DNA of 54,827 bases from a virus (Duplodnaviria > Caudoviricetes), in IMG/VR virus record IMGVR_UViG_3300032282_002669, positions 1 to 54,827 of that record; one strand, written 5' to 3'. Shown piece by piece: positions 21,992 through 48,227 of this stretch. The notes under the pieces are model-generated. The model saw nothing but the letters and a program-made list of their open reading frames with translations, made no database searches and was not told the DNA's origin. Position 1 is the first letter of the stretch, and every line of letters begins with the position of its first letter. A program made the translations under genes and the position numbers.

Positions 21992-23386
21992 ATGGCAATT
22001 AACGAAGGTCAAACAATACAATACACAGTAACCACGACCAATACGGCCGATGGTACAGTATTGTATTGGAAAACTACAGGCAACACCACAAACTCCGACA
22101 TACAAGGTGGTAACACAGGTTCAGTAACGATTACAAACAATCAAGCCGTGTTTAATGTGGAGGTAATTGCTGATACCACTACAGACGGAGTTAAAACTTT
22201 AGGTCTTAGTCTTTCTACAGGATCATTAAATGGTCCTACAGTAGTATCAACATCAAGTCCAATTACAGTTACAGATACTTCACGTTCACCACAATATTCT
22301 CTGTATTTTTGGGGTAGAAATTCTCCAGTAGGCATATCAGGAACAAATGATTCTGTGGATTTACCAAGATCCAGTCCAGTACAAATTGGAACTTCATCGT
22401 GGAATTTAATTTCAGTTGGTGATTATGTTGTTGCCGGCATTCAAACCAATGGAACTTTATGGACTTGGGGAGACGATCAAACAGGATCATTAGGACGACC
22501 AGATAAAATTAATAGATCCAGTCCAACACAAGTTGGTGCCTTGAGTAATTGGTCAAGTGTAGCTTCAGCTAGATACCATTGTGTGGCCGTTAAAACTGAT
22601 GGCACTTTATGGTCATGGGGATTGAGTGGAGGCGGAAGATTAGGAAATAATAGTGGCAATTATTCAAGTAGGTCTAGTCCCACACAAGTTGGATCAGGAA
22701 CAACATGGTCAAGCGTAAAAACAACAGTCTCAGCTTCTTTTGCGTTAAAGACTGATGGTACACTATGGACTTGGGGACCAAATTCTCTAGGTCAATTAGG
22801 TTTAAATTTAGGAAACATTTATAGGTCCAGTCCAGTTCAAATAGGATCACCTAGTGGATATTCTTGGACCACCATTGGAACAGGAGCATATTCCGTTGGT
22901 GGAATAACAAGTGATGGTTCATTATTTACTTGGGGTGGCGACCTTTCAAACTATGGGGTTTTGGGAGTAAATTCATCAGTCAGTAAGTCTGCACCAACAC
23001 AAGTAAATGGTTCTTGGTCAAAAATTGATTTTTGTACTAACGATACTGGTTTTGTCGGAATTAAATCTAATGGAACTTTATGGCAAACCGGATATGGGTT
23101 TTTTATTGGTAACGGAGGCATTAATGTTTCTAGTCCTGTTCAGCTTGGATCCAATTCAGATTGGGTAAATGTTTATGCAAATAAAGGTGGAGCTTTTATT
23201 ACAAAAGCCAATAACGCAGCTTATGTTTTTGGCCAAAATAATTGGGGTGGATTAGGACAAAATAATGCCATTTATCAGTTGGCTACAAACATGGTTCAAT
23301 TGGGTACAACAACTCAATGGAGAAATTTTGCCAGCACAAAAACATCCACAAACGACCAAATCGTGTTTGGTACCACACTGGACTAA
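21992..23386 (+). CDS. RCC1/BLIP-II-like beta-propeller protein with N-terminal Calx-beta/Ig-like domain
   Basis: Repeats of KTDGTLWxWG...LG...SSPxQxG (about 7 blades) after INEGQTIQYTVTTTN...VLYW. Confidence 0.85.
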   Translation: MAINEGQTIQYTVTTTNTADGTVLYWKTTGNTTNSDIQGGNTGSVTITNNQAVFNVEVIADTTTDGVKTLGLSLSTGSLNGPTVVSTSSPITVTDTSRSPQYSLYFWGRNSPVGISGTNDSVDLPRSSPVQIGTSSWNLISVGDYVVAGIQTNGTLWTWGDDQTGSLGRPDKINRSSPTQVGALSNWSSVASARYHCVAVKTDGTLWSWGLSGGGRLGNNSGNYSSRSSPTQVGSGTTWSSVKTTVSASFALKTDGTLWTWGPNSLGQLGLNLGNIYRSSPVQIGSPSGYSWTTIGTGAYSVGGITSDGSLFTWGGDLSNYGVLGVNSSVSKSAPTQVNGSWSKIDFCTNDTGFVGIKSNGTLWQTGYGFFIGNGGINVSSPVQLGSNSDWVNVYANKGGAFITKANNAAYVFGQNNWGGLGQNNAIYQLATNMVQLGTTTQWRNFASTKTSTNDQIVFGTTLD

Positions 23387-23428
23387 CAGAATAAAACCGA
23401 TACGAATTGGTCTAAAAGGAAATAAAAA

Positions 23429-23791
23429 ATGAGTCATTTTGCAAAAGTAGAAGATGGAACAGTAACACAAGTTATTGTTATTGAGCAAGATGTTTTAAAC
23501 ACAGGACATTGGGGTGATCCATCATCTTGGGTACAAACTTCATATAATACTAGAGGTGGTGTTCACACATTAGGTGGAACTCCATTGCGTAAAAACTTTG
23601 CTGGTATTGGGTACACATACGACAGAGTTCGTGATGCATTTATTCCACCAAAACCTTTTGCTTCTTGGAATTTAAATGAAGATACTTGTTTGTGGGATGC
23701 ACCAACTGAAATGCCAGTTGAAGAAGGTAAAATGTTTTATTGGGATGAACCAACAGTATCTTGGTTGGAATTTGTTCCACCGACAGAATAA
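23429..23791 (+). CDS. Conserved phage protein (MSHFAK family), possible fibre chaperone
   Basis: MSHFAKV...WVQTSYN...RKNFAGIGYTYD..RDAFIPPKPFASW.L.E.TC.W.AP; SD AAGGA. Confidence 0.7.
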   Translation: MSHFAKVEDGTVTQVIVIEQDVLNTGHWGDPSSWVQTSYNTRGGVHTLGGTPLRKNFAGIGYTYDRVRDAFIPPKPFASWNLNEDTCLWDAPTEMPVEEGKMFYWDEPTVSWLEFVPPTE

Positions 23792-23794
23792 ATA
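23787..23794 (+). promoter_or_regulatory. Late promoter variant AATAAATA
   Basis: Overlaps the stop of 23429, upstream of 23818. The same variant occurs at 29782-29789. Confidence 0.5.
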
Positions 23795-23817
23795 TAGAAT
23801 AATCTAGGACTAATTAC

Positions 23818-25347
23818 ATGGCTTTTCCACTATCACCAGCAAATAATCAAACTGCTCTAGTTAATGGCATTGTTTATCAATGGAATGCCGGACTTGGTGT
23901 TTGGAAAAGAAACGGTTCAGTTAACTCAATTGAAGTAGGACAGTTATTACTTAACTCTGCACAACAAACAACATCAAACGGATCAGGAACTTTAATTGTT
24001 TCTGGTGGTGCAGGCATAACAGGTAATGTTTATACTGGTGGAATCTTTATTACTGGTGCTGCAAACGGTATTACCTTTGCGGATGGTTCAGTACAAACTA
24101 CTGGTGCTACAGGTATAGATTCTTATGCTAGAACTACGGCTAATACAGCTTCATCTAATACTGTAGTGATTCAAGGTATAGATACAGCACAGAATACCCG
24201 TATGACTATTATTGAGGGCGTAGACACTACTCAAAATACTAATATTACCATTATTCAAGGTGTGGATGTTGGTCAAAATACTCGTATGGGTATTATTGAG
24301 GGCGTAGACACTACTCAAAATACTAATATTACCATTATTCAAGGTGTGGATGTTGGTCAAAATACTCGTATGGGTATTATTGAAGGTGTTAATACAACTC
24401 AAAACACTAATATTACAGCCGCTGATACTAAAGCACAAGCTGCTTTTAATGCCGCTAATACCAAGTTCTCATCTTCTGGTGGTACAATTACAGGTGATAC
24501 AGTAGTAACAGGAAACTTAACTGTAACTGGTACACAGTTCTATGCCAATACAGTAAACTTAACTGTTGTTGATAACATTATTACTCTAAACTCCAATGTA
24601 ACCGGCGCACCCACATTAAGTGCTGGTCTTGAAGTTAACAGAGGTTCATCTTCCAATACTAAGTTACTTTGGTCTGAAGCAAATACATCATGGGAATTTA
24701 CCAATAACGGATCATTCTATGATAAGATTGCTGGTTTAACATATGCTAATGCAGCATTTGCAGCTGCTAATACTAATGCAACCAACATTACTATACTTCA
24801 AGGTGTAGATGCAACACAGAATACCAACATTACTAATGTTGACACTAAAGCACAAGCCGCTTTCGATAAAGCAAACTCAGCCAATGTACTGGCACAGGCT
24901 GCATTTAATACTGCCAACTCTGCTGGTGCGGTAAGTATCACCGATGATACAACAAATAGTGGAACATATTATCCATTGTTATCGGTATCCGCCACAGGCA
25001 CACTCTCTACTTCAAATACATCCAGTTCTAAATTATCTTATGTACCATCAACTGGTACACTAACAACTGTAGACTTGAATACAACATCTGATATCAAGTT
25101 TAAAGAGAACATCCAAACGATTGATTCGGCATTGGAAATGATAAATAGAATAGACGGAGTTTCGTTTAACTGGAAAGAAACTGGTAAGAAATCTTATGGT
25201 GTGGTTGCTCAGCAGTTACAAGAAGTTTTACCAGAATTAGTTTCAGAAGAAGAACGTGGTTTATCTGTTTCGTACCTACCAATTATTGCAATTCTTATTG
25301 AGGCAATTAAAGAACAACAAAAACAAATAAACGATTTAAAAAAATAA
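23818..25347 (+). CDS. Tail fibre with C-terminal intramolecular chaperone (peptidase S74)
   Basis: TSDIKFKENI...GVSFNWK...GVVAQ...LPELV...SVSY...LIEAIKEQ is the S74 autocleavage domain. MAFPLSP N-terminus; QNT heptad repeats. Confidence 0.88.
   Translation: MAFPLSPANNQTALVNGIVYQWNAGLGVWKRNGSVNSIEVGQLLLNSAQQTTSNGSGTLIVSGGAGITGNVYTGGIFITGAANGITFADGSVQTTGATGIDSYARTTANTASSNTVVIQGIDTAQNTRMTIIEGVDTTQNTNITIIQGVDVGQNTRMGIIEGVDTTQNTNITIIQGVDVGQNTRMGIIEGVNTTQNTNITAADTKAQAAFNAANTKFSSSGGTITGDTVVTGNLTVTGTQFYANTVNLTVVDNIITLNSNVTGAPTLSAGLEVNRGSSSNTKLLWSEANTSWEFTNNGSFYDKIAGLTYANAAFAAANTNATNITILQGVDATQNTNITNVDTKAQAAFDKANSANVLAQAAFNTANSAGAVSITDDTTNSGTYYPLLSVSATGTLSTSNTSSSKLSYVPSTGTLTTVDLNTTSDIKFKENIQTIDSALEMINRIDGVSFNWKETGKKSYGVVAQQLQEVLPELVSEEERGLSVSYLPIIAILIEAIKEQQKQINDLKK
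24208..24375 (+). repeat. Perfect 84-bp tandem duplication (28 aa)
   Basis: 24208-24291 equals 24292-24375 (IIEGVDTTQNTNITIIQGVDVGQNTRMG). Confidence 0.9.
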
Positions 25348-25380
25348 TAATAATAAGCCGAGTACCTAAGAGGAACGAAG

Positions 25381-27123
25381 ATGGCAATCAAAATTAATAA
25401 TACTGTTGTTATAGACAACAGTAGAAATGCGACAATTAATGCAATCACAGCAAACACTATAACTGCCAACGGCACAGACCTTGGTACTGCTGTTGCTCAA
25501 GCCTACTTACTGGCCAATAATGCAAACCAAACAACTACATCTAATACTGCACCAACCAGTCCTAAAGTTGGTGATGCATGGTATGATACAATAACCGGTA
25601 TTACTTTTAGATACACCAACGATGGCACAAGTAATAACTGGGTAGATATTACAGGTCCACAGAATTCTGGTTACATTTATCAGTCATATGCAATTACTCC
25701 AAATACATCAACTGTTAGTGAAACTACTGGTAACACAGTAAGTTATACAGTCACAACCACCAATACTGCCGATAACACCGTATTATATTGGACCAATTCT
25801 GGTACAACTGTTGCATCAGACTTTAAAGATTCTGTAAGTAATGGTACGGTTACAATTGTAAACAATTCTGGAACATTTACAAGGTCAGTAATTGCGGATT
25901 TGGTGACAGAAGGTTCCGAAACGATTGTAATGAATCTTAGAACCGGTTCAAATACCGGTACAATCGTAGCCGTTGCAAGTTCTGTGTCCGTAGGTGATAC
26001 TTCACAGGATCCATATTACGCTATGTACTCTACAGGATATAATCAGACTGGTGAATTAGGCCTCAATGATAGAGGTGTTTATAGATCCAGTCCAACACAA
26101 ATAGGATCACAAAGCAATTGGAGAGTAATTGCATCAGGTGGAGCTAGTAGCTCAGGATTTAGTGCTGCAATTAAAACCAATGGAACTTTGTGGTTGTGGG
26201 GTCAAGGCAGTTATGGAAAATTGGGACAAGGTGATAACATTTCACGATCTTCACCCACACAAGTGGGAGCTTTAACATCTTGGTCGGATGTTGTTATTGA
26301 GCGAAATGCTCAAGCTTGCATGGCTATTAGAACTGATGGTACAATATGGACATGGGGAAATAATGCTTACACCGGAATACTTGGTCAGAATCAAGGTTCG
26401 CCGTTTTCTTTTTATGATAAAAACAGTCCAACACAAGTAGGAACAGACACAAGTTGGAGTAAAATTGGTGCAACAGCTGGCGTCTTTGCATCCATCAAAA
26501 CCAATGGCACTCTGTGGTTGTGGGGAAGTAATAGTTATGGAAAATTAGGCCTTGGTGATACAGATAATAGATCCAGTCCAACACAATTAGGATCAGGAAC
26601 AGATTGGGCCATCTTGCCAAAATCAGGTGGCGGGTCTTGGATGGGTGCTATTAAAACCAATGGTACTTTGTGGACATGGGGAGGAAATTGGCAGACTCAA
26701 ACAGGATCAAATAGATCCGGCAATTTTAATCCTGTTTTACCAACACAACAAACAGGATCAAATTGGTCTAAACTTGCAATTGGATCGGACCACGGACTTG
26801 CTATCAAAACTGACGGCACCTTATGGGGTTGGGGAAATAATTCAAGAAATCAATTAACAAATAGCGTAGCTGGCTATGGAAATATAACTCAGATAGGTAC
26901 TTCAACAACATGGGCAGAGGTTTCTACAAGCCAATATACAACTGTTGCATTAAAAACTGATGGCACGATATGGGGATGGGGAAGAAACGACTTTGGCCAA
27001 TTAGGGTTAAATGGTACTGTCGGTGGTTACTCAATAAGTTCTCCAAGACAAATTGGAAGTGCAACAAATTGGGGTGGAGTATCTGTTGGATCAATGACGT
27101 TACTAACAACAAATTCACAATAA
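25381..27123 (+). CDS. RCC1-like propeller protein with MAIKIN anchor, GDxW domain and intact Calx-beta/Ig-like domain
   Basis: MAIKINNTVVIDNSRN; SNTAPTSPKVGDAWYD...NNWVDI; YAITPNTSTVSE...ADLVTEGSET; about 7 RCC1 blades. Confidence 0.85.
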   Translation: MAIKINNTVVIDNSRNATINAITANTITANGTDLGTAVAQAYLLANNANQTTTSNTAPTSPKVGDAWYDTITGITFRYTNDGTSNNWVDITGPQNSGYIYQSYAITPNTSTVSETTGNTVSYTVTTTNTADNTVLYWTNSGTTVASDFKDSVSNGTVTIVNNSGTFTRSVIADLVTEGSETIVMNLRTGSNTGTIVAVASSVSVGDTSQDPYYAMYSTGYNQTGELGLNDRGVYRSSPTQIGSQSNWRVIASGGASSSGFSAAIKTNGTLWLWGQGSYGKLGQGDNISRSSPTQVGALTSWSDVVIERNAQACMAIRTDGTIWTWGNNAYTGILGQNQGSPFSFYDKNSPTQVGTDTSWSKIGATAGVFASIKTNGTLWLWGSNSYGKLGLGDTDNRSSPTQLGSGTDWAILPKSGGGSWMGAIKTNGTLWTWGGNWQTQTGSNRSGNFNPVLPTQQTGSNWSKLAIGSDHGLAIKTDGTLWGWGNNSRNQLTNSVAGYGNITQIGTSTTWAEVSTSQYTTVALKTDGTIWGWGRNDFGQLGLNGTVGGYSISSPRQIGSATNWGGVSVGSMTLLTTNSQ

Positions 27124-27137
27124 TAGGTAAAATATAA

Positions 27138-28364
27138 ATGTCTTTTCCATTATCACCAGCCAATAATCAAGTTACGCTTGAAAATGGTATATCGTATACC
27201 TATAATGCTTCAAGGAATTTTTGGTATAGAACACCCGCAACTGCGTTAGCTTCAATTACATCTAATACATTTACTGTTCTAAATTCAATCATATTTTCAG
27301 ATGGTACTACACAAACATCTGCTGCTAGTCCAAATGATTCATATGCTAGAACTACTGCTAATACTGCAACCAATAATATTACTGTTATTCAAGGTGTAGA
27401 TGTAGGTCAAAACACTAGAATGACTGTAATAGAAGGTGTAGATGTAACACAGAACACCAACATTACTATAGCAAATAATGCAGCTCAAGCTGCGTTTGCA
27501 CAAGCCAATGCAACTGCTGGTGGATTAACTACCGCCAATAGTAGAATCACGGTTGCTGAAGGTGTCGATACTACCCAGAACACTAATATTACCATAGCAA
27601 CCAATGCTGCAACAGCCGCATTTGCTCAAGCTAATGCAACTGCTGGCGGATTAACTACCGCTAATAGTAGAATCACGGTTGCTGAAGGTGTAGACACTAC
27701 TCAAAATACTAATATTACCAATGCGACTAATGCTGCAACGGCAGCTTTCACTAAAGCAAATACTGCAATCACCACATCAGGTGGTTCAATCACCGGTTCA
27801 TTAAATGTATCACAAGATTTGGCCGTTACAGGAAACTTAACTGTATTAGGAGCCACCACTTCCATTAACACAACTTCTTTTGTTGTTAGTGATTCTTTAA
27901 TCGTGATGGGTACAGGAAATTACACCTCAGATTTATTGGATATTGGATTAACGGCTCACTACAACGATGGCACTAACGCACATGCCGGTATTGTTCGTGA
28001 CGCTACAACCAAAGAATGGTATGTGTTCAAAGGTTACACACCAGAACATTCTGCAAATAACAACATTGATATTAATCATGCATCATTTGCTAAAGCAAAC
28101 GTTAACGCAAATTATTTTAAAGGTAACGTAATATTTCCAGACGGCACAGTTCAAGCTACAGCCGTAAATTTAAGAATGACTGGAAGTAGTACTCCACCAT
28201 CCACTCCAACAGTCGGTGATTTGTGGTATGATACAGATATCGATGTGTTGCTTCGTTACACATATGACGGATCATCAAACAATTGGGTCGATATTACTGG
28301 ACCAACAATTGGTAGGTCGTCATATATTCGACCAACATACTTAATATCTGCTAACGTAGCATAA
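27138..28364 (+). CDS. Mosaic tail fibre protein
   Basis: MSFPLSPANNQ N-terminus; 42-aa heptad-multiple repeats; HYNDG domain; C-terminal PTVGDLWYD...NNWVDI. Confidence 0.75.
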   Translation: MSFPLSPANNQVTLENGISYTYNASRNFWYRTPATALASITSNTFTVLNSIIFSDGTTQTSAASPNDSYARTTANTATNNITVIQGVDVGQNTRMTVIEGVDVTQNTNITIANNAAQAAFAQANATAGGLTTANSRITVAEGVDTTQNTNITIATNAATAAFAQANATAGGLTTANSRITVAEGVDTTQNTNITNATNAATAAFTKANTAITTSGGSITGSLNVSQDLAVTGNLTVLGATTSINTTSFVVSDSLIVMGTGNYTSDLLDIGLTAHYNDGTNAHAGIVRDATTKEWYVFKGYTPEHSANNNIDINHASFAKANVNANYFKGNVIFPDGTVQATAVNLRMTGSSTPPSTPTVGDLWYDTDIDVLLRYTYDGSSNNWVDITGPTIGRSSYIRPTYLISANVA

Positions 28365-28373
28365 GGACTAAAA

Positions 28374-29786
28374 ATGCCATTAAATGAATCTAGTTCAAAC
28401 ACTTCGATACAATATACAGTAACAACGACCAGAGTAACTGATGGTACAGTATTATATTGGAAAACTACAGGTAGTATTGCTAACTCTGATATTGTAGGAG
28501 GTAATACTGGTACAATTACAATTAATAATAATCGTGCAGTATTCAATGTTACTATTATTGCAGACAACGTGACTGAAGGTAATGAAACATTAGGTATTGC
28601 AATTTCTACTGGTTCACAGAGTGGACCAACAGTAGTATCAACGGCCAATCCAATTACAGTTAATGACACATCATTAGATCCATATTACGCTATGTACGCT
28701 ACAGGATATAATGTGAATGGAGAATTAGGTCTCAATGATAGAACCAATAGGTCCAGTCCAACACAAATAGGATCAGCAACAAATTGGAGATTAATTGCAA
28801 CTGGTGGATATGGCAATAGTGGTGGTTCAGGAGTTAGTGCTGGAATTAAAACCGATGGTACTTTATGGTTATGGGGATTTGGTCAATATGGCCGATTAGG
28901 CCAAAACGATACAATTTCACGTTCTTCACCTACACAAGTAGGAGCTCTAACATCTTGGTCTGATGTTGCCATTAGTGGTAATGCAAGCCATACAATTGCT
29001 CTCAGAACCGATGGTACATTATGGTTATGGGGAAAAGGTAATTATGGACAATTAGGTCAAGGTAATACAAGTCATCAATCCAGTCCAGTAGCAGTAGCAG
29101 GAACAAATTGGAGTAAAATTGGTGTAAGTGCGGGCCTGTCTGCAGCAATTAAAACGGACGGAACATTGTGGACCTGGGGAAATAATAGTTATGGAAAATT
29201 AGGACTTGGAGATAATACTAACAGAAATAGCCCGGTACAAGTAGGAACAGGAACAGATTGGTCTTATTTGAATAAATCAGGTGGTGGTGTTGCTATGGGT
29301 GCTATCAAAACCAATGGTACTTTATGGACGTGGGGAGGAAATTGGGAAACTCAAACAGGATCAAATAGAGATACTAGCGGAAATCCTTTCTATGGAGTAA
29401 GAAGTCCTGTACAACAAACAGGATCAAATTGGCTTAATCTTTATATGGGGTATGGTCACGGACTTGCAATCAAAACTGATGGTACGTTGTGGGGTTGGGG
29501 AAATAATTCAAGAAACCAATTAACAAATAGCGTAGCTGGTTATGGAAATATAACTCAAATAGGCAATGAAACAACGTGGGCTGCTATAGGAACTAATAGA
29601 TATGAAACTATTGGATTAAAAACTAATGGCACCATATGGGGTTGGGGTAAAAATTCTAGTGGACAATTAGGACTAAGTGAAGGTGATTATCCTTACATAA
29701 GTTCTCCAAGACAAATTGGAAGTGCAACAAATTGGGGTGCAGTAGCCACTGGATCAATGACTTTACTAACCACAAATTCACAATAA
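28374..29786 (+). CDS. RCC1-like propeller protein with N-terminal Calx-beta/Ig-like domain
   Basis: N-domain closely resembles that of 21992; propeller closely resembles that of 25381. Confidence 0.85.
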   Translation: MPLNESSSNTSIQYTVTTTRVTDGTVLYWKTTGSIANSDIVGGNTGTITINNNRAVFNVTIIADNVTEGNETLGIAISTGSQSGPTVVSTANPITVNDTSLDPYYAMYATGYNVNGELGLNDRTNRSSPTQIGSATNWRLIATGGYGNSGGSGVSAGIKTDGTLWLWGFGQYGRLGQNDTISRSSPTQVGALTSWSDVAISGNASHTIALRTDGTLWLWGKGNYGQLGQGNTSHQSSPVAVAGTNWSKIGVSAGLSAAIKTDGTLWTWGNNSYGKLGLGDNTNRNSPVQVGTGTDWSYLNKSGGGVAMGAIKTNGTLWTWGGNWETQTGSNRDTSGNPFYGVRSPVQQTGSNWLNLYMGYGHGLAIKTDGTLWGWGNNSRNQLTNSVAGYGNITQIGNETTWAAIGTNRYETIGLKTNGTIWGWGKNSSGQLGLSEGDYPYISSPRQIGSATNWGAVATGSMTLLTTNSQ

Positions 29787-29812
29787 ATAAAGAATAAATT
29801 TAGGAATATTAA

Positions 29813-31282
29813 ATGTCATTTCCGATATCACCATCAAATAACCAAATAGCATTAGTAAATGGTATTGAGTATTACTACCTTACCACTAAAGGTGCATGGT
29901 ATCGCTATGGCGATGGAAGTGCCAATGTAATTACATCTAATACATTTCAAGTATTAAGTTCAATCATATTTTCTGATGGTACTTCACAAACAACTGCAGC
30001 AAATCCTACCGATGCATATGCTAGAACTACAGCCAATACTGCAACAAGTAATATTGTAATTCTACAAGGTGTCGATACTACTCAGAACACCAACATTACA
30101 ATTGCTAATAATGCGGCTCAGGCTGCGTTTGCACAAGCTAATGCAACTGCCGGTGGTTTGACCACAGCTAACACTAACATAACAGTAATACAAGGTGTGG
30201 ATGTAGGTCAAAATACTCGTATGACAATCATTGAGGGTGTTGATACAACTCAAAACACCAATATTACTATAGCAACTAATGCTGCAACGGCAGCTTTTGC
30301 TCAAGCCAATGCTACTGCCGGTGGATTAACTACGGCAAACACCAGATTAACTGTTGTTGAAGGTGTTGATACTACTCAGAACACCAACATTACAATTGCC
30401 AACAATGCAGCTCAAGCTGCGTTTGCACAAGCCAATGCAACTGCTGGTGGATTAATAACTGCTAACGCCAGAATTACCATATCTGAAGGTGTAGATGTAA
30501 CACAGAACACCAATATTACAAACACAACTACTTTAGCACAAGCTGCTTTTGATAAAGCCAATTCTTCTTATACATTGGCCAATACTGCAAATAGTAAATC
30601 AACTACTAGTTCTACTTCATTTACATCTGTTGTAGATACATTTACAGGTAATGGAAGTCAAACACAGTTTACTCTGTCTGTTGTACCTGATACAGAGAAC
30701 AGTACATTTGTTTATTTAAATGGTGTGTATCAAAACAAATCCACATACTCGGTAGTTGGTGCCAATGTTGTATTCACCGATACAGCAACTGCAAATGATA
30801 CTATTGAAGTAACTACTGTTGCTGGTAGTGTTATGAATGTAAGTCCTGCTGGTTACTCAACAAGAATCTATCAAGGTAATGGATCAACCACAGCATTTAC
30901 AATTAGTGCAGGTCAAACTGCCAACACCGTTATGGTGTTCAACAACGGTATCTGCCAATTCCCCGTTACGGACTATACAGTAAGCGGAACTACACTAACA
31001 TATATTGTAGCACCACAGTCCGATGAAACGGTACAGATTCGGGAACTACCAATAAATACATTAGTTGCAATCACACAACCATATTTAAGAAGATATACTG
31101 CCAATGGAGTTCAAACAACATTTACAGTAACATCAGGTCAATCAGCCAACTCAATGTTTGTATATGAGAATGGTGTATGTCAAATGCCTATTAATGATTA
31201 CACAGTAAGTGGAACAACATTGACCTTTACTACAGCACCTAGTTCAGATAAAGTAATTCAAATTAGAGAAATGCCAGTTTAA
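29813..31282 (+). CDS. Fibre/hub protein with three C-terminal FTGNG-type repeats
   Basis: MSFPISP N-terminus; QNT/AQAAF shaft; three domains of pattern xNGxxTxFT...V..NG..Q...Y.V.G. Confidence 0.7.
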   Translation: MSFPISPSNNQIALVNGIEYYYLTTKGAWYRYGDGSANVITSNTFQVLSSIIFSDGTSQTTAANPTDAYARTTANTATSNIVILQGVDTTQNTNITIANNAAQAAFAQANATAGGLTTANTNITVIQGVDVGQNTRMTIIEGVDTTQNTNITIATNAATAAFAQANATAGGLTTANTRLTVVEGVDTTQNTNITIANNAAQAAFAQANATAGGLITANARITISEGVDVTQNTNITNTTTLAQAAFDKANSSYTLANTANSKSTTSSTSFTSVVDTFTGNGSQTQFTLSVVPDTENSTFVYLNGVYQNKSTYSVVGANVVFTDTATANDTIEVTTVAGSVMNVSPAGYSTRIYQGNGSTTAFTISAGQTANTVMVFNNGICQFPVTDYTVSGTTLTYIVAPQSDETVQIRELPINTLVAITQPYLRRYTANGVQTTFTVTSGQSANSMFVYENGVCQMPINDYTVSGTTLTFTTAPSSDKVIQIREMPV

Positions 31283-31291
31283 GGATAAAGA

Positions 31292-33001: not shown

Positions 33002-33004
33002 TCC

Positions 33005-33142
33005 ATGCCAACTAAATTAATTGGAGATAGCTTTGCTCCAGGATCCATTACAGTTAACCAAATTACCGTTGGTGCTTTAAATTCCAAAATATTTTCTGTA
33101 CAAGTAACAAATTCATCTTACCTAATAAATAAAACAATATGA
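33005..33142 (+). pseudogene. 5' relic (45 codons) of an additional IPT-RCC1 paralog
   Basis: Translates as MPTKLIGDSFAPGSITVNQITVGALNSKIFSVQVTNSSYLINKTI*. It aligns with the 33139 N-terminus (MTTQITANNITAGTITSTQLLPGSLAPRISSISICDASY) up to SSY. Not in the supplied ORF track. Confidence 0.7.
33124..33131 (+). promoter_or_regulatory. Late promoter variant AATAAATA, 7 nt before ATG
   Basis: Directly upstream of 33139; no SD. Confidence 0.55.
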
Positions 33143-34836
33143 CAACACAAATTACCGCAAATAATATTACAGCAGGAACAATTACATCAACACAATTGCT
33201 TCCTGGTTCTTTAGCACCAAGAATATCTTCTATTTCTATTTGTGATGCATCTTATAATATTCTGGATGACACCGCAGCCAATACTACCGGCGGTTACATT
33301 CAAATTTCTGGAGCCAATTTTGGATCCAATTCACAAATTGTTATTGGAACAAACAATGCAACTTCCGTAACATTTGTAAACACTTCAACAATTAGGGCTC
33401 AGGTAGGTGTTGCAGCAGCCGCAACTTATCCTGTGTATGTTATTGATACTGATACTGGTGCTACCGCAATTAAAGTAAATGGATTATCCACTAGTTCATT
33501 CCCAGCATGGAGTACCGGTGCAACATTAACTGGCCAAAACTCTGGCAATTTTTTTGGCATCAATCTTAGTGTTTCATCTGATTCTAATATTACATATGCA
33601 AATACAACTGCATTACCAGCCGGTACCACATTAGCAGCCAATGGATATTTTTCAGGTACAGTTTCTATTGGTTCTACAACAACATACAATTTTACTGTTG
33701 ATGCTAAAGATGCTGAAAATCAAAATGCAGTTAGGTCATTTAGTATGACAGTAACAGTAATACCAGCAACAAAATTGTGGTCTTGGGGAAATAACAATCA
33801 AGGTCAATTAGGACTTAATAATTATACCTATAAATCTAGTCCAACACAAATAGGAACAGGTGTTGCTTGGGCAAATACATCTATTGGTCAACAACATAGT
33901 GCCGCTACCAAAACCGATGGAACTTTATGGACGTGGGGAAGAGGCGCTGAAGGCCAATTAGGTCTTGGTACCACAATAGAATATTCCTCGCCTAAACAGG
34001 TTGGCACAGGAACAACATGGAGTAGTGTAGTCGTTAACAATACTGGCACCGGATTTACAGCGGCAATCAAAACTGATGGCACTTTATGGTTGTGGGGAAG
34101 AAATAATTATGGAAGATTGGGCACAACTTATGGACACAAATCCAGTCCAGCACAAGTTGGAGCATTAACAACATGGAGCCAAGTTTCTCTTGGCCATACT
34201 CATACTGCTGCTGTTAAAACTGATGGTACTTTGTGGACATGGGGCCTTGACAGTTATGGAGCATTAGGTCTTAGTGTTTTATCACCTTACATAAACAGTC
34301 CTACACAAGTTGGCACAGGAACAAATTGGAAAAGTGTTTCACTTGGTCCAAGTTTTATGGGAGCCATAAAAACTGATGGTACTTTATGGTTATGTGGATA
34401 CGGTGTATATGGCAGATTAGGTTTAGGTGACAGTACTAATAAGTCTAGTCCAGTACAATTAGGTACTGACACGAATTGGAGTATGATTAGTTGTAGATAT
34501 TATGCTACACTTGCAACTAAAACCGATGGTACATTGTGGGCGTGGGGTAATGGTTCTCGAGGACAATTAGGACTCAATGATGGTGCAAACAGAAATAGCC
34601 CGGTACAAGTTGGCACAGGAACAACATGGAATAAAGTAAGTTCTGGCGGTCATAGTCTGGCAATTAAAACCGATGGAACTTTATGGGCGTGGGGTCGCCA
34701 AAGACTCGGAGCATTAGGATTAAACAATTCAGGAAATTATGTTTATGTATCAAGTCCTATACAAGTCGGTACAGAAACAAATTGGAGTACTATTTCTGCT
34801 GCTCTATATACTTCTATTGCCATCACTACAAACTAA
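33139..34836 (+). CDS. IPT/TIG + Ig-like + RCC1 propeller protein
   Basis: Same architecture as 31292; shared SYNxLDDTAANT and SSFPAWSTG motifs. Confidence 0.85.
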   Translation: MTTQITANNITAGTITSTQLLPGSLAPRISSISICDASYNILDDTAANTTGGYIQISGANFGSNSQIVIGTNNATSVTFVNTSTIRAQVGVAAAATYPVYVIDTDTGATAIKVNGLSTSSFPAWSTGATLTGQNSGNFFGINLSVSSDSNITYANTTALPAGTTLAANGYFSGTVSIGSTTTYNFTVDAKDAENQNAVRSFSMTVTVIPATKLWSWGNNNQGQLGLNNYTYKSSPTQIGTGVAWANTSIGQQHSAATKTDGTLWTWGRGAEGQLGLGTTIEYSSPKQVGTGTTWSSVVVNNTGTGFTAAIKTDGTLWLWGRNNYGRLGTTYGHKSSPAQVGALTTWSQVSLGHTHTAAVKTDGTLWTWGLDSYGALGLSVLSPYINSPTQVGTGTNWKSVSLGPSFMGAIKTDGTLWLCGYGVYGRLGLGDSTNKSSPVQLGTDTNWSMISCRYYATLATKTDGTLWAWGNGSRGQLGLNDGANRNSPVQVGTGTTWNKVSSGGHSLAIKTDGTLWAWGRQRLGALGLNNSGNYVYVSSPIQVGTETNWSTISAALYTSIAITTN

Positions 34837-36627
34837 ATGACTCAATACATTAAGTCTTATAATATTGCAAACAACTCACTCAGCTCAGTTGTTTTTGGTT
34901 CTGATGTTGCAAATACAATTAATACAGCTGCTATAGCATCTGCTGTGGCTATTTCTGCCAACGTGGCTGCACAAGCAGTTAATACATTTGTTACATTACA
35001 AACTCAATCAATTGCTAATACACCACCAACAATTAATGTAATATCAATTACAGATTCATCTTATAATGTTCTAGATGACACAGCAGCCAATACTGGTGGT
35101 GCATACTTACAAATTACAGGATCTAATTTTCAATCTGGTGCTATTGTTATGGTAGGTTCTAGTAACACCGCATTGACCACCACATTAGTAAACTCAAGTA
35201 CATTGAGAGCAGAGATTCCAGCCATTGCATCAGGAACTTATCCTGTATATGTGGTGAACACTAATGGTGGCACAGGTATTCGAGTTAATGGATTAACAAC
35301 AAGTTCATTTCCAGCATGGAGTACCGGTACTACATTGACAGGACAAATAAGTGGCACCGCATTTGGAATTAATATTGCAGCATCATCAGACTCTAATATT
35401 ACATATTCTAATACCACAGCATTACCAGCAGGTACAACATTATTAGCTAATGGATATTTTTACGGAACATCTAGTCCGGCTTCTACAACAACTTATACAT
35501 TCACCGCCAAAGCAACTGACGTAGAAAATCAAGATGCATCGAGAACATTTAGTGTAACCGTAACAGTACTACCCATAGGATATTTGTATAGGTGGGGAAA
35601 TAATACTGGCGTTACGCCAATATCTTCTTCGCCAGTACAAGTTGGCAGTGATAATACATGGTTAACACTAGCAACGAATAACTATCATGGTTTAGGTATT
35701 AAACAAAATGGAACTTTATGGGCTTGGGGGGATAATTCACGAGCACAGTTTGGAGTAAATAATAAAGTTAGTTCAAGTTCACCAGTGCAAGTTGGTGCAT
35801 TAACAAATTGGTTAACCATCGCTTCAGGATATTTTAGTTCTTTTGCAACAAAAACCGATGGTACATTATGGTCCTGGGGGAATGCAACTTATGGAGAATT
35901 AGGTATTGGTGTTAATGGAGCAAATAGGTCTAGTCCAGTACAAATTGGTGCATTGACTAGTTGGAGTAATGTAGTAGCTGGACAATATTATTTTGCAGCA
36001 TTAAAAACTGATGGAACAATATGGGGTTGTGGATATATTAGTTATCCAAATGGATTTGGTGGTAGCGTTCCTTCACAATTAGGATCAGATACCAATTGGA
36101 GTAAAATTTATGCAGGAAGAAGAAGTTTTTCTGCAATTAAAACAACAGGAATATTATTAACTCAAGGTTATAATTATCATGGAGAATTAGGCCAAAATAC
36201 GACCGTTGACAATTATACTATGACAGCTGTTGGTTCAACAAGTTGGGATTCAGTTTCTATGGGCTCAAACCATGCTTTAGGTATTAAAACTGATGGCACA
36301 TTATGGAGTTGGGGTTACAATCGCAACGGACAATTAGGATTAAATAGTGCTGCTGGTTCCGATAGATCCAGTCCAGTGCAAATTGGTACAAATAACAATT
36401 GGCAATTAGTAAATGTTAATGGTTATAATAGTATATTTTCGTCAGATGGCATTGGTCATGCAATTAAAACTGATGGCACGTTATGGGGATGGGGACAAAA
36501 TAATCAAGGACAATTGGGATTACCGGATTTAATTTCTAGGTCCAGTCCGACTCAAGTTGGTACAGGAACATCTTGGAAAAATATAAAATCAGGTAGAACT
36601 GGCGTTATTGCTATTTCATCATCTTAA
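34837..36627 (+). CDS. IPT/TIG + Ig-like + RCC1 propeller protein
   Basis: Same architecture; TAAATG coupling to the upstream gene. Confidence 0.85.
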   Translation: MTQYIKSYNIANNSLSSVVFGSDVANTINTAAIASAVAISANVAAQAVNTFVTLQTQSIANTPPTINVISITDSSYNVLDDTAANTGGAYLQITGSNFQSGAIVMVGSSNTALTTTLVNSSTLRAEIPAIASGTYPVYVVNTNGGTGIRVNGLTTSSFPAWSTGTTLTGQISGTAFGINIAASSDSNITYSNTTALPAGTTLLANGYFYGTSSPASTTTYTFTAKATDVENQDASRTFSVTVTVLPIGYLYRWGNNTGVTPISSSPVQVGSDNTWLTLATNNYHGLGIKQNGTLWAWGDNSRAQFGVNNKVSSSSPVQVGALTNWLTIASGYFSSFATKTDGTLWSWGNATYGELGIGVNGANRSSPVQIGALTSWSNVVAGQYYFAALKTDGTIWGCGYISYPNGFGGSVPSQLGSDTNWSKIYAGRRSFSAIKTTGILLTQGYNYHGELGQNTTVDNYTMTAVGSTSWDSVSMGSNHALGIKTDGTLWSWGYNRNGQLGLNSAAGSDRSSPVQIGTNNNWQLVNVNGYNSIFSSDGIGHAIKTDGTLWGWGQNNQGQLGLPDLISRSSPTQVGTGTSWKNIKSGRTGVIAISSS

Positions 36628-36632
36628 TCAAT

Positions 36633-36640
36633 AATAAATA
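36633..36640 (+). promoter_or_regulatory. Late promoter variant AATAAATA, 7 nt before ATG
   Basis: Directly upstream of 36648; no SD. Confidence 0.55.
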
Positions 36641-36647
36641 AACCACT

Positions 36648-38450
36648 ATGGCAAAAATATCATCAAATAATATTCTAACTGGCACAATCACTTCAGATAA
36701 ACTAGATGCATCTGTTGCCAGTAATTTAGCTTCTGCAAATAACGCTAATGTGGTTGCAACAATCGCTTCTACTGTGGCAGCTGCAGCATTTGCTTCTGCA
36801 AATACCAATGCGGCTATATTAGCAAACTCTGCGGTACCATTAATTACTACTATACAAATTGCTGATTCATCTTATAATATTCTAGATGACACCGCAGCCA
36901 ATACTACTGGTGGTTATGTTGTTATTACTGGAACAGGATTTACCAGTAATTCAACTGTCGTGTTTGGATCAACTTCTGCACCAGCAGTATCTTATGTAAG
37001 TTCAACTGTTCTTAGAGCACAAACTCCAGCACTAACTGCGGCTTCATATCCAGTTTATGTTGTTAACAGTAATGGCGGTACTGCAATTAAAATTAATGGA
37101 CTTACAACAAGTTCATTTCCAGCATGGAGTACCGGCACAACATTGACAGGACAAAATAGTGCAGTTTCTTTTGCAATTAGTTTAAGTGCTCCTTCAGATT
37201 CCAATGTAACTTATTCAAACACTACCGTATTACCAACGGGTACCACATTGTTAGCCAATGGATATTTTTATGGTGCTGTTACTGTGGCCACAACTACAAC
37301 ATATTCATTTACCGTTAAAACAACTGACGTAGAAAATCAAGATGCATCGAGAACATTTGATATAACTGTAAATGGACTACCATCTTTGTATGTTATAGGA
37401 TACAACCTTAATGGACAATTAGGATTAAACGATAGAACTTATAGATCCAGTCCTGTACAATTAGGTACGAATGTTTGGAGTTCAATAGCGCCAGGTTATG
37501 GAACAACAGCATTAATCAAATCTGATGGTACTTTATGGACATGGGGCAAAAATTCAGAAGGTCAATTAGGACAAAACGACTTAATTGAAAGATCCAGTCC
37601 TGTACAATTAGGTACAAATACAAATTGGAGTCAAGTTGCTTGCTCAACCTTTCTTGCTGCTACCTTTGCAGCAATTAAAACCGATGGCACTTTATGGACA
37701 TGGGGCCATGGTGGATTTGGAAGAACAGCACAAAATTTGGCATTAAGTCATAGGTCTAGTCCAATACAAGTTGGTGCTTTAACAAATTGGAGTAAAGTAA
37801 CTGGTTCAGCGCAAGCTTTATTTGCTATTAAAACTGATGGTACGCTGTGGGCATGGGGATCAAATTCATATGATATTCAAACATTTCCAAATCCAAGCAT
37901 TCATAGATCCAGTCCAACACAAATTGGAGCAGGAACAACATGGTTAAATGTATCGTGTGGTTATTATCATATGATGGCAACTAAAACGGATGGTACATTA
38001 TGGGGTGCAGGAGGAGATATTTTTGGCCAACTAGGACTTAATAGTACACACAATGCATATACAGCAACTTTGGCACAAGTTGGAGCTGACACTACATGGA
38101 ATTTAATTAGTTGTTCTGGTTATTCTTCTTTTGCAAAAAGATCAAACGGAACAATATGGAGTTGGGGTAGAAATGCTGTGGGTGAATTAGGACAAAATAA
38201 TTTAATTTATAGATCCAGTCCAACACAAATTGGTTCAGGAACAAATTGGAGTAAATTATTTTCAAGTGGACAATCCAACACATTTGGAATAAAATCCGAT
38301 GGAACATTGTGGTCTTGGGGTTTTGGTTCTAGTGGTGAATTAGGATTAAATTCTACAAATAGAAGATCCAGTCCAACACAAATTGGTTCAGGAACAAATT
38401 GGGCCGATGTTGCTGCAAGTGGCGGCACTACATTCATTAAAACAATTTAA
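36648..38450 (+). CDS. IPT/TIG + Ig-like + RCC1 propeller protein
   Basis: Same architecture; contains a 39-bp exact repeat (38211-38249 and 38364-38402). Confidence 0.85.
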   Translation: MAKISSNNILTGTITSDKLDASVASNLASANNANVVATIASTVAAAAFASANTNAAILANSAVPLITTIQIADSSYNILDDTAANTTGGYVVITGTGFTSNSTVVFGSTSAPAVSYVSSTVLRAQTPALTAASYPVYVVNSNGGTAIKINGLTTSSFPAWSTGTTLTGQNSAVSFAISLSAPSDSNVTYSNTTVLPTGTTLLANGYFYGAVTVATTTTYSFTVKTTDVENQDASRTFDITVNGLPSLYVIGYNLNGQLGLNDRTYRSSPVQLGTNVWSSIAPGYGTTALIKSDGTLWTWGKNSEGQLGQNDLIERSSPVQLGTNTNWSQVACSTFLAATFAAIKTDGTLWTWGHGGFGRTAQNLALSHRSSPIQVGALTNWSKVTGSAQALFAIKTDGTLWAWGSNSYDIQTFPNPSIHRSSPTQIGAGTTWLNVSCGYYHMMATKTDGTLWGAGGDIFGQLGLNSTHNAYTATLAQVGADTTWNLISCSGYSSFAKRSNGTIWSWGRNAVGELGQNNLIYRSSPTQIGSGTNWSKLFSSGQSNTFGIKSDGTLWSWGFGSSGELGLNSTNRRSSPTQIGSGTNWADVAASGGTTFIKTI

Positions 38451-38745
38451 TATATCAGGAGATTTGGGAATCAATACTGGCACACAAACTTCGAGCCCGA
38501 CCCAAGTTGGTGGTGCAGTATGGAGTAAAGTTGCGTCAACTGGACAAATGGCGTCAACCGGACATGCAGTAATGGGAATAAGAACAGATGGCACACTATG
38601 GTCCTGGGGTTACAACGACAATGGAGAGTTGGGATTGAACGACAAAGTTCGCAGATCTAGTCCTGTGCAAGTTGGCGCAGCAACAAATTGGTATAATGTT
38701 TTTGCTGCTGGTGCTGCTCAACGACATGTTATACTTTCTAATTAA
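38451..38745 (+). pseudogene. Orphan 3' fragment of an RCC1 propeller gene (last ~2 blades)
   Basis: GDLGINTGTQTSSPTQVG...IRTDGTLWSWG...RSSPVQVG...VILSN* lies in the +1 frame relative to 36648, with no credible start or SD. Confidence 0.7.
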
Positions 38746-38804
38746 CAAGTTAGTTATACAACACCTATATAATATTGTGAATTAATTATTTGAAAGGTTT
38801 TACC

Positions 38805-40565: not shown

Positions 40566-40577
40566 TAGGAGATAGTA

Positions 40578-40997
40578 ATGCCGACAAAAACAGGATACAA
40601 TGTTCGAGTTCAAGATGGTAAAGTAACTGATGTTTGGGACACCCCAGCACCAGAAGGTCAAAGTGGTTGGACAGCAGCAGTTGAAGTTACACCAGACCTT
40701 ACACCTAACCGTGAAATTCTAACAACACATTCAATCGATATCACCAAGAATCCAATTGAGATTGTTTGGGAAAAGAGAAGTTTGTCTGTTGACGAGCGTA
40801 AAGATTCATTGATTGGTCAAGCTAACTTTGCCGTAACAATGTTAGAAAACCAATTAGAAATGGCAACTCAAATGAATAACACAGATAGAATTGCCGAATT
40901 GACAGCACAAATTGCTGAAGCAACTCCAGTCCGTGATGCTAAAGTTACAGCCGTTACTGCTGCTACTACACATGAAGAAGTTGACGCTTTGATGTAA
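40578..40997 (+). CDS. Hypothetical protein, possible tail-fibre assembly chaperone
   Basis: Strong SD (AGGAG); beta-rich N-half and helical C-half ending AATTHEEVDAL, reminiscent of Tfa-type proteins. Confidence 0.5.
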   Translation: MPTKTGYNVRVQDGKVTDVWDTPAPEGQSGWTAAVEVTPDLTPNREILTTHSIDITKNPIEIVWEKRSLSVDERKDSLIGQANFAVTMLENQLEMATQMNNTDRIAELTAQIAEATPVRDAKVTAVTAATTHEEVDALM

Positions 40998-41024
40998 TTT
41001 TGTTTTTCATTATGAAAGTTTGAT

Positions 41025-48226: not shown

Positions 48227-48227
48227 C

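Follow-up and report, generated by a model that had tools for sequence, protein, structure and literature searches.

In modular receptor-binding proteins of phages, the N-terminal anchor is conserved and the C-terminal head can be exchanged, and phages equipped with multiple receptor-binding proteins include CBA120, phi92 and K64-1. In T2-type phages, the long tail fibre carries at its tip the adhesin gp38, a glycine-rich sandwich whose gene directly follows that of the distal fibre. Among the major killers of ocean bacteria are the marine T4-like phages, and we know of few receptor-binding proteins that have been identified in them.

The RCC1 propeller is a seven-bladed fold found in the RCC1-like domains (RLDs) of UVR8, HERC1/2, RPGR and RCC1, which are intracellular signalling proteins of eukaryotes. 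In phages, mass spectrometry has placed RCC1-like proteins in the virions of coliphages W70, GAP32 and phAPEC6. The W70 proteome contains three proteins of family phrog_4219, and phAPEC6, with RCC1-like proteins in its virion proteome, bears unexplained hairy fibres on both tail and capsid. The W70 proteins, GAP32 gp1 and the arrays of phAPEC6 and 121Q are ~40-kDa propellers annotated as "DNA condensation protein", and the accessible text makes no mention of an anchor or of fusion to a fibre. DNA condensation is one paper's guess for the family. PHROGs lists phrog_4219 as "regulator of chromosome condensation" under "DNA, RNA and nucleotide metabolism", a label that traces back to eukaryotic RCC1, and our literature search on whether RCC1 proteins bind receptors in phages turned up no paper that assigns them this role, several of its RCC1 hits being names of strains or loci. 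A beta-propeller does act as a receptor-binding platform in the baseplate of Staphylococcus phage phi11, although Gp45 (PMC4901313) is five-bladed, is not of RCC1 type and belongs to a siphovirus.

The window described here, by which we mean the whole 54.8-kb stretch of DNA analysed, derives from an uncultured marine T4-like myovirus. It encodes nine seven-bladed RCC1 propellers spread over eight genes, together with two gene relics, and the propellers sit in the tail-fibre block. They are probably the distal receptor-binding heads of the tail-fibre system, and as such would be carried on the virion, bind the host and influence host range. The locus resembles the multi-receptor-binding-protein phages in its tandem tail-fibre-module genes, conserved anchors, divergent distal domains and shuffling of anchors and tips. 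It differs in that the putative heads are non-enzymatic RCC1 propellers and not beta-helix tailspikes, with up to nine of them in a single fragment. It shares a PHROG family and multi-copy tandem arrays with the coliphages, and to these it adds anchors, fusions and a setting among fibre genes.

Gene Inventory and Context

The features of the locus are collected in Table 1. All RCC1 genes of the fibre block lie on the same strand within the interval from VrlC (2473-8817) to gp13/gp14, which they share with fibre genes bearing Mtd_N, Peptidase_S74 and collagen domains. A block of this VrlC-to-gp13 type is called a host recognition cluster in PMC7029224.

Table 1. RCC1 genes, gene relics and neighbouring fibre genes of the window
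Feature	Coordinates	Strand	Description
Fibre shaft gene, 661 aa	19997..21982	+	QGVD..QNT repeats; C-terminal GDLW..NWVDISGP domain
RCC1 gene, 464 aa, split form	21992..23386	+	Calx-like beta-sandwich (~residues 1-100), then 7-blade propeller
Fibre gene, 509 aa	23818..25347	+	C-terminal Peptidase_S74 intramolecular chaperone; directly 5' of 25381
RCC1 gene, 580 aa, fused form	25381..27123	+	Short fibre N-terminus, GDAWYDT..NWVDITGP domain, Calx-like domain, 7-blade propeller
Fibre shaft gene, 408 aa	27138..28364	+	Upstream partner of split pair 27138/28374
RCC1 gene, 470 aa, modelled protein	28374..29786	+	Calx-like domain, then 7-blade propeller
Fibre gene, 489 aa	29813..31282	+	Repeated DUF4183-like C-terminal domains; directly 5' of IPT-type genes
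RCC1 gene, 569 aa	31292..33001	+	N-peptide, IPT/TIG, He_PIG Ig domain, 7-blade propeller
N-terminal relic, 45 codons	33005..33142	+	Remnant of lost IPT-type RCC1 gene
RCC1 gene, 565 aa	33139..34836	+	N-peptide, IPT, He_PIG, 7-blade propeller
RCC1 gene, 596 aa	34837..36627	+	Extended Ala-rich N-terminus, IPT/TIG, He_PIG, 7-blade propeller
RCC1 gene, 600 aa	36648..38450	+	Extended N-terminus, IPT/TIG, He_PIG, 7-blade propeller
C-terminal relic, out of frame	38350..38745	+	Last ~2 blades and C-terminus of a further propeller gene
Fibre gene, 433 aa	50098..51399	+	QGVD..QNT repeats; stop overlaps 51399 start codon
Double RCC1 gene, 755 aa	51399..53666	+	14 blades, i.e. two propellers; N-peptide ~25 residues

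The first-pass annotation had recorded seven full RCC1 genes and the double propeller at 51399, a count that Pfam and a blade HMM bear out. The two relics and the Calx-like module of 25381, which is placed behind the fibre C-terminal domain, were absent from it. The first relic has its best match in the N-terminus of the gene at the equivalent position in the related phage L003. The double propeller is encoded outside the fibre block, between a gp15-like gene and the small terminase gene. A protein combining a Calx-like and a Gly-rich part is also encoded in the window (46031-47410).

Fold and Repeat Framework

The models RCC1 (PF00415), RCC1_2 (PF13540) and PF25390 were found in all nine RCC1 ORFs searched, namely 21992, 25381, 28374, 31292, 33139, 34837, 36648, the fragment 38383-38745 and 51399. 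PF00415 scored 43-282 bits in these nine (cutoff 21.7), and PF25390 exceeded its 150-bit cutoff in seven of the eight full-length genes, with 136 in 21992. The blade HMM built here counts 7 blades in each of the seven single-propeller genes, 14 in 51399 and ~2 in the fragment, and all eight window RCC1 proteins submitted matched phrog_4219, a family with at least 7,999 relatives at E<=1e-10. The constant framework reported earlier (KTDGTLWxWG, GxLG and SSPxQxG) is reproduced by residue frequencies over 63 blades. These are K.87, T.69, D.65, G.85, T.81, L.84, W.86, x, W.81, G.98 for the first motif; G.87, x, x, L.85, G.88 for the second; and S.78, S.87, P.92, x, Q.97, x, G.92 for the third.

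An AF2 model of 28374 (pLDDT 87) has a propeller part of 28 strands, with four-strand blades of ~50 residues and RCC1 type. Foldseek aligns this model with the RLDs of UVR8, HERC and RPGR at target-normalised TM values of 0.8-0.88, and the 31 PDB sequence matches reach E 4e-51 for eukaryotic RCC1-like domains. No GEF or photoreceptor feature is implied by this shared fold; a UVR8-like photoreceptor was set aside on inspection by eye, the tryptophans of GWRHT type, which we take to be the UVR8 photoreceptor motif, not being conserved in the RCC1 sequences.

The annotation had also offered BLIP-II as a precedent, with the propellers as virion-borne inhibitors of host envelope enzymes, and this proposal is not upheld. 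BLIP-II belongs to the same broad repeat superfamily, and the PF13540 model matches the window proteins, but no BLIP-II chain occurs among the 31 PDB matches or in the Foldseek rows shown for the 28374 model (ranks 1-49, with gaps). The window blades differ from BLIP-II in their four strands and ~50 residues, and no hydrophobic, secretion-signal-like stretch was seen by eye at the N-termini of the RCC1 proteins.

Location of the Variability

Two stretches vary in each blade, in sequence and in length as reported earlier: loop L23, the 9-23 residues after WG, and loop L41, before AIKT. Among the nine window propellers, entropy is 1.83 bits in L41, 1.54 in L23 and 0.52 in the TDGT turn; across 14 orthologues it is 1.43 bits in L41, 0.94 in L23, 0.17 in L12 and 0.52 in L34. 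In these orthologues 30 of the 40 most variable sites fall in L23 or L41 (Mann-Whitney p = 6e-8). The even spread that the annotation had named as counting against its proposal is thus not seen. The loops were further described as rich in aromatic residues, which holds in a relative sense: W, Y, F and H make up 10.6% of the variable loops and 1.8% of the rest of the propeller, with the three framework-W columns excluded, and reach 7.1% in the N-terminal modules. Loop variability by itself is expected in any repeat propeller.

Strand topology, as distinct from coordinates, places the two variable loops of each blade on one face. The propeller would be a monomer with one nearly invariant face, made of the TDGT and GxGTNW turns, and an opposite face built by the loops after WG and before AIKT.

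Anchor Modules

The propellers had been assigned three kinds of anchor. Two of these stand, the IPT-plus-Ig module (He_PIG in 4/4 and TIG in 3/4 IPT-type genes at E<=0.01 in Pfam) and the ~25-residue N-peptide of 51399. The Calx-beta-like label is weakly supported: Pfam scores PF03160 in one of three modules, at E 0.0097 with 16.4 bits where the cutoff is 27, and Foldseek, given the isolated domain model, returns CALX CBD1 and CBD12 as top matches at TM 0.5-0.54, the best being CALX-CBD1 (E 1.1e-3, TM 0.54). Each N-module of the four IPT-type genes has a counterpart in L003, and pelagiphage HTVC105P has a tail fibre whose C-terminal end is matched by the IPT-plus-Ig module.

Split and Fused Fibre-Propeller Genes

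The stop codons of both split fibre genes, 19997 and 27138, are TAA, each lying 9 nt upstream of and in frame with the following RCC1 gene (21992 and 28374, respectively). These stops map to the linker of fused forms. The metagenomic homologue P0023 (696 aa) unites in one chain a 27138-like N-terminus with repeats, a GDxWYDT..NWIDISGP domain, a Calx-like domain and a propeller, and shorter fusions include P0004, P0008, P0009 and others. The RCC1 genes are encoded in a tail-fibre module and are linked to shafts in their fused homologues. A viral contig of 136 kb also contains a junction like that of the window. When viral contigs were scanned a second time, starting from 28374, no close orthologue emerged (best segment 46% identical), so that the junction can be examined only in L017 and the metagenomic proteins. 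Read-through of the in-frame TAA was rejected, since TAA is the usual stop (36 of 42 ORFs), it is followed by a Shine-Dalgarno sequence and ATG, and its in-frame position, being inherited, is not independent; the arrangement is accordingly treated as gene fission or fusion.

A small beta-sandwich anchor, either Calx-like or IPT plus Ig, would join propeller and fibre shaft, covalently in 25381 and presumably non-covalently in 19997/21992 and 27138/28374. For these split pairs the closest functional analogue, with attachment presumed, is T2-type gp38, which likewise is the product of a separate gene directly after a fibre gene and has a constant scaffold with variable loops, although its fold is a glycine-rich sandwich and not an RCC1 propeller. 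A complex prediction for the C-terminal 81 residues of 27138 and the N-terminal 107 of 28374 scored 0.22 (mark 0.32), which speaks neither for nor against binding.

Propellers are associated with fibre genes in other phages as well. The tail-fibre position of Pseudomonas phage PollyC, which is T7-like, is occupied by a gene whose product has a match to the T7-tail-fibre N-terminus (E 6.7e-5, below the Pfam cutoff) followed by an RCC1 propeller, and cyanophage S-SRM01 has the gene order baseplate wedge, S74 fibre, RCC1 genes. RCC1 propellers are a recurring kind of putative phage receptor binder.

Divergence and Exchange

Between the close relative L003 and the window, seven flanking genes are 83-95% identical (dN 0.02-0.12, dS 0.28-1.02), anchor modules 75-80% (dN 0.13-0.18) and propellers 49-57% (dN 0.40-0.51, dS 1.1-1.5); the C-terminal part of the 29813 fibre gene is 91% identical to its L003 counterpart. 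The attachment part is consequently conserved, and the distal part divergent, between related phages. Within the window, 21992 and 28374 have a common anchor (66%) and not a common tip (40%), whereas 25381 and 28374 have a common tip (72%) and not a common anchor (48%). Judged by these identities, anchors and tips are shuffled among the window paralogues. The propellers are old paralogues, 38-50% identical, and a quick propeller tree is star-like, with 6 of 43 inner branches supported; it was used only for the pairing of 25381 with 28374.

With dS also higher in the propellers, their divergence looks more like replacement from a diverged pool than like rapid adaptation. In the one close pair, dN/dS is 0.27-0.48 and thus below 1 in every structural class, so positive selection is not demonstrated. 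A DGR was considered and rejected: direct-repeat copies in 9000-54827 are 60-87% identical to the reference, with no near-identical template/variable pair, and no reverse transcriptase occurs among the Pfam and PHROG matches obtained, Pfam having covered part of the ORFs. Blade homogenisation was looked for and not found. The antibody-like character suggested earlier holds for the architecture, in which a constant scaffold bears variable loops; a diversity generator, blade homogenisation and dN/dS above 1 were not found. The repertoire would change by tip swaps on conserved anchors and by gene gain and loss, with no dedicated hypermutation device.

Function of the Propellers

Genomic context, the fused homologues, the anchor-tip contrast and loop variability on one face favour the panel of receptor binders that the first-pass annotation had proposed, and this is the best-supported reading, with binding itself presumed. 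The propellers are most likely swappable host-binding tips, whose variable face would bind host surface structures. Besides the dN/dS and dS values given above, three observations point away from fibre tips: the double propeller is encoded outside the fibre block, the solved RCC1-like domains nearest to the 28374 model bind proteins inside cells, and PHROGs places the family in DNA metabolism.

Some of these observations would suit other roles. The propellers might be decoration adhesins that sit on the particle and bind particles, exopolymers or non-host surfaces in place of an infection receptor, raising encounter rates as proposed for Ig-like capsid decorations. He_PIG Ig-like, IPT and Calx-like domains are of a kind commonly seen in adhesive decorations, the double propeller adjoins neck genes, and the hairy fibres of phAPEC6 would fit; yet fusion to fibre shafts and the contrast between tips and flanks in the L003 comparison better fit host-specific recognition than generic stickiness, and the PollyC propeller occupies a tail-fibre position, so we consider decoration unlikely. 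Alternatively, they could be non-virion proteins of the infection stage that bind or inhibit host proteins in the cell or envelope, with BLIP-II-like and GEF-like roles among the options. The intracellular protein-binding platforms among solved RCC1-like domains and the PHROGs label would agree with this, but the lack of a BLIP-II chain among the 31 PDB matches and, by eye, of a signal-like N-terminus, the embedding of RCC1 genes among fibre genes and their fusion with them, and the homologues in coliphage virions (W70, GAP32 and phAPEC6) make it decidedly improbable. Least probable of all are fibre assembly factors or chaperones that act on adjacent fibre proteins and are absent from the particle or transient on it. 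Each split RCC1 gene does lie directly 3' of a fibre gene, as many tail-fibre chaperone genes do, and the PollyC gene bears the RefSeq label "tail fiber assembly"; covalent fusions, however, make a purely catalytic role unlikely, one would not expect chaperone genes to diverge more than the rest of the block, and 23818 already has its own S74 chaperone.

Within the preferred reading of the propellers as fibre tips, it is conceivable, if doubtful, that a single virion displays all nine on a branched fibre system, each anchor subtype at its own docking site. The subtypes would be the four IPT-type N-modules, two Calx-like arrangements and the neck-side double propeller. If so, the phage would possess a combinatorial, non-enzymatic recognition set exceeding that of any characterised T4-like phage, and phages would exchange tips at the stop/Shine-Dalgarno/start cassette of the fibre-propeller linker. 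More generally, if RCC1 propellers are fibre tips, a very large family would move to host recognition, and host range could then be predicted from metagenomes with its variable loops as markers. The split or fused junction offers a concrete joint for engineering tips or tracing their exchange.

Sequence Signals and Relatives of the Array

A megablast of the RCC1 array against 50,697 phage records gave zero matches. Between 17000 and 36900, a sigma-70 promoter scan found fewer promoter-like sites than in shuffled sequence, and the terminator-like sites listed fall inside ORFs. The motif TATAAATA, which we take to be the T4 late-promoter motif, was counted 3 times against 8 expected. Two of its copies lie ~21-24 nt 5' of the start codons of 17582 and gp13, a suggestive placement.

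Genomic setting

All of the large open reading frames of this single contig of 54,827 bases lie on the plus strand, and GC content varies across the window between 31 and 41%. For the 2,114-aa protein, the best matches, at around 31% identity, are the VrlC proteins of Pelagibacter phage HTVC008M, the Methylophilales Melnitz phages, and Mosig; the wedge and neck proteins have their nearest relatives in cyanophages, at 29-40% identity. These matches identify the window as a fragment of the genome of an uncultured marine T4-like myovirus. The collagen-repeat gene of the fibre block sits where the GC skew of the window is strongest. The T4-type late-promoter motif TATAAATA is found at 17551-17558 and 47425-47432, some 21-24 nt upstream of the start codons of the 17582 fibre and gp13 genes (genes are named here by their start positions); with three copies in the window against eight expected from shuffles, it is rarer than chance. 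In pelagimyophages and cyanomyophages, the stretch from VrlC to gp13/gp14 is called the host recognition cluster in PMC7029224, and on that description the same stretch of the window corresponds to it.

Genes other than those for the propellers identified in the window
Feature	Position	Strand	Basis
Baseplate wedge subunit	1096-2463	+	PHROG/Pfam matches
2,114-aa VrlC-like protein	2473-8817	+	closest matches VrlC, ~31% identity
Collagen-repeat protein, 585 aa, in fibre block	11477-13234	+	PHROG/Pfam
Mtd_N fibre protein, one of many fibre proteins	17582	+	PHROG/Pfam
Peptidase_S74 fibre protein	23818 (23818-25347)	+	PHROG/Pfam
2OG-Fe(II) oxygenases		+	PHROG/Pfam
Sulfotransferase	38790	+	PHROG/Pfam
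gp13-, gp14-, and gp15-like neck and sheath-stabiliser proteins	47453-50098	+	PHROG/Pfam
Small and large terminase subunits	53683 to window end	+	PHROG/Pfam

Propellers and their anchors

The first-pass annotation had described seven complete RCC1 propeller genes and a double propeller at 51399, and had proposed an RCC1 HMM search. Run with Pfam, this search finds RCC1 repeats in all nine of the RCC1 ORFs submitted, and a blade HMM trained on the window's own blades confirms the count, with exactly 7 blades in each of 21992, 25381, 28374, 31292, 33139, 34837, and 36648, and 14 in 51399; it also detects about 2 blades in an out-of-frame fragment at 38383-38745. The framework motifs quoted in that annotation are real, as seen from residue frequencies in the blade alignment, and the DNA copies of the blades are only 60-87% identical. 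An AF2 model of 28374 (pLDDT 87, pTM 0.77) contains an N-terminal beta-sandwich and a 28-strand propeller, and its Foldseek neighbours are UVR8, the HERC1/2 RLDs, RPGR, and RCC1, with target-normalised TM scores of 0.8-0.88.

Of the anchors, as the N-terminal modules are called here, the IPT+Ig type holds up well, with He_PIG found by Pfam in four of four IPT-type genes and TIG in three of the four. For the beta-sandwich, the label Calx-like is fair but weak, because the domain of 28374 modelled separately (pLDDT 80) has as its top Foldseek match CALX CBD1 at just E 1.1e-3 and TM 0.54, and the Calx-beta match to the N-terminal modules falls under the Pfam cutoff. An IPT-type relative on a 136-kb viral contig (L017:9453-11003) lacks the He_PIG Ig domain, such that IPT adjoins the propeller directly; the linker domains, too, are thus modules that can be dispensed with.

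The fibre-propeller junction

The fibre genes 19997 and 27138 end in a GDLW..NWVDI(S/T)GP domain, and each stops at a TAA that is 9 nt upstream of the next RCC1 gene (21992 and 28374, respectively) and in the same frame, with the junction TAAGGAnTAnAAATG. In 25381, the same fibre domain is found uninterrupted ahead of the Calx-like domain. Metagenomic homologues of 28374 occur in both split (P0011, P0012; 466-471 aa) and fused forms; the fused protein P0023 (696 aa) has a 27138-like N-terminus and repeat shaft that continue to the propeller, and the stops of the split fibres align within the linker of the fused proteins. An identical fibre/propeller junction is present in L017.

Repeats of 42-nt period, encoding NTxITIIQGVDxxQNT, are common to six fibre genes (19997-21982, 23818-25347, 27138-28364, 29813-31282, 45018-45650, and 50098-51399). 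Several of these have an N-terminal MSFPLSPxNNQ..NG..Y.Y motif that resembles a C-terminal GDxWYDT..Y..DG..NW motif, a likeness that may represent an end-to-end joining code. The 459-aa product of 46031-47410 combines a Calx-like module, with motifs that by eye are those of 21992 and 28374, and a C-terminal domain that is long and rich in glycine. The short fibre gene 45018 and 45654 (124 aa) come before it, in an order that mirrors 17582, 19650, 19997, and 21992, and the protein may represent another kind of tip carried by this type of anchor.

Distribution of variation

Each sequence repeat has four strands: s1 (AIKT), s2 (LWxWG), s3 (SSPxQ), and s4 (NWxxV). Across the nine propellers of the window, the lowest entropies are those of the TDGT s1-s2 turn (0.52 bits), s3 (0.86), and s2 (0.88), and the highest those of the s4-s1 loop L41 (1.83 bits, 20% gaps), s4, s1, and parts of L23, the long s2-s3 loop. 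Among 14 orthologues with at least 60% identity to 28374, the entropies of L41 and L23 (1.43 and 0.94) exceed those of L12 and L34 (0.17 and 0.52), and L23 and L41 together hold 30 of the 40 sites that vary most (Mann-Whitney p = 6e-8), in keeping with the uneven variability on which the idea of a constant framework with variable loops had depended. Alternate loops of an up-down propeller share one face; by this strand topology, L23 and L41 would lie together on one side and the conserved turns on the opposite one. Aromatics make up 10.6% of residues in the L23/L41 loops versus 1.8% elsewhere (three framework-tryptophan columns excluded), so that the loops are relatively enriched but not, as had been stated, rich in aromatic residues in absolute terms.

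Divergence, shuffling and turnover

Between the window and the closely related viral contig L003, seven shared downstream genes retain 83-95% protein identity (dN 0.02-0.12, dS 0.28-1.02), and fibre 29813 is 91% identical in its C-terminal part. In the four IPT-type RCC1 genes that lie between this fibre and the downstream genes, the N-terminal modules are 75-80% identical (dN 0.13-0.18), whereas the propellers of the same genes are only 49-57% identical (dN 0.40-0.51, dS 1.1-1.5). Non-synonymous divergence in the tips is thus around ten times that of most neighbours, and the higher propeller dS indicates that tips were exchanged for copies from a diverged pool. Anchors and propellers have also been shuffled among the window paralogues: 21992 and 28374 are 66% identical in the anchor but just 40% in the propeller, and 25381 and 28374 are 72% identical in the propeller but just 48% in the anchor.

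L003 contains five IPT-type genes. At 33005-33142, the window holds a 45-codon relic whose closest counterpart is the N-terminus of the gene that L003 has in this place (alignment score 96 versus at most 67 for others), and a C-terminal relic of two blades is found at 38350-38745; the relics and the fifth gene point to gene turnover. The block just after the RCC1 array (38790-44971) encodes a 591-aa sulfotransferase-domain protein, 2OG-Fe(II) oxygenase-like and methyltransferase-like proteins, and further enzymes; in L003 it is conserved at 83-95% identity, and L017 and a further related locus, L004, have it as well.

Proposed receptor binding and its alternatives

The best-supported reading, which we regard as probable, is that the propellers are fibre-tip receptor binders, because of the fibre fusion, the contrast between tips and flanks relative to L003, the shuffling, the turnover, the occurrence in other phages, and virion proteomes elsewhere. 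The first-pass annotation had proposed an antibody-like panel of receptor binders, and fusion, tip divergence, and shuffling favour the binder part of this proposal. On these data the repertoire is not a hypermutating antibody-like system, as no DGR repeat turned up, the blades are unhomogenised, and dN/dS in the one close pair is 0.27-0.48. The DNA repeat search that found no DGR-type repeats covered 9000-54827. Blade identity is the same within and between propellers (0.41), the nearest-neighbour blade lies in the same gene for only 4 of 63 blades, and no homogenisation was seen among these 63. For 25381 and 28374, the only close pair, dN/dS is 0.27 in the core and 0.42-0.48 in the variable elements (0.42 overall), and the window's propeller paralogues are 38-50% identical. 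The lack of DGR repeats and of homogenisation, with dN/dS below 1, argues for a repertoire of old, diverged paralogues, maintained and exchanged as modules. The other earlier suggestion, of a BLIP-II-like inhibitor role, finds no support, in that the 31 matches of a PDB sequence search include the same families as the Foldseek neighbours and none of them is BLIP-II.

Occurrence in other phages

Tandem arrays of seven-blade RCC1 genes recur among the 25 related viral loci analysed, and so do giant ORFs in which several propellers, with as many as 51 blades, are joined. Matches to 33139 occur in only 29 of 50,697 cultured-phage records, and 28374 has at least 7,999 metagenomic relatives (E<=1e-10). 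In the T7-like phage PollyC, the tail-fibre position is taken by a gene whose product pairs an N-terminal match to the T7 tail fibre (E 6.7e-5, slightly under the cutoff) with a propeller of the RCC1 type. In cyanophage S-SRM01, a baseplate wedge gene is followed, in this order, by genes for an S74 fibre, three RCC1 proteins, a 2OG oxygenase, a sulfotransferase, and a glycosyltransferase, and at its C-terminal end the tail fibre of HTVC105P is similar to the IPT+Ig module. In published virion proteomics, three proteins named "Regulator of chromosome condensation 1", of phrog_4219, are reported for W70 virions (PMC11370258), GAP32 gp1 is reported to be structural and to have homologues in several copies in 121Q and PBEC04 (PMC5259590), and six "DNA condensation proteins" are listed for the phAPEC6 virion (PMC7247149). 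From that text and sequence matches, the phAPEC6 six are probably the RCC1-like proteins of the same paper. All eight window RCC1 proteins submitted match phrog_4219. For RCC1-like phage proteins, DNA condensation has been guessed in one paper, and the literature searches found no paper that assigns a receptor-binding role to phage RCC1 propellers. The window is a further, well-documented instance of a recurring kind of probable phage fibre tip, with a neat junction, both fused and split, between fibre and propeller.

In S-SRM01, a sulfotransferase gene comes immediately after an RCC1 gene, as does 38790 in the window. In three freshwater-type loci (L005, L022, L009), the blades are by eye near-identical within a propeller, unlike those of the window (41%). 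Giant single ORFs of 21-51 blades are found in four loci (L013:4154-12766, L011, L021, and L015), one of 2,870 aa having 51 blades, and propellers can therefore be strung many times in one chain.
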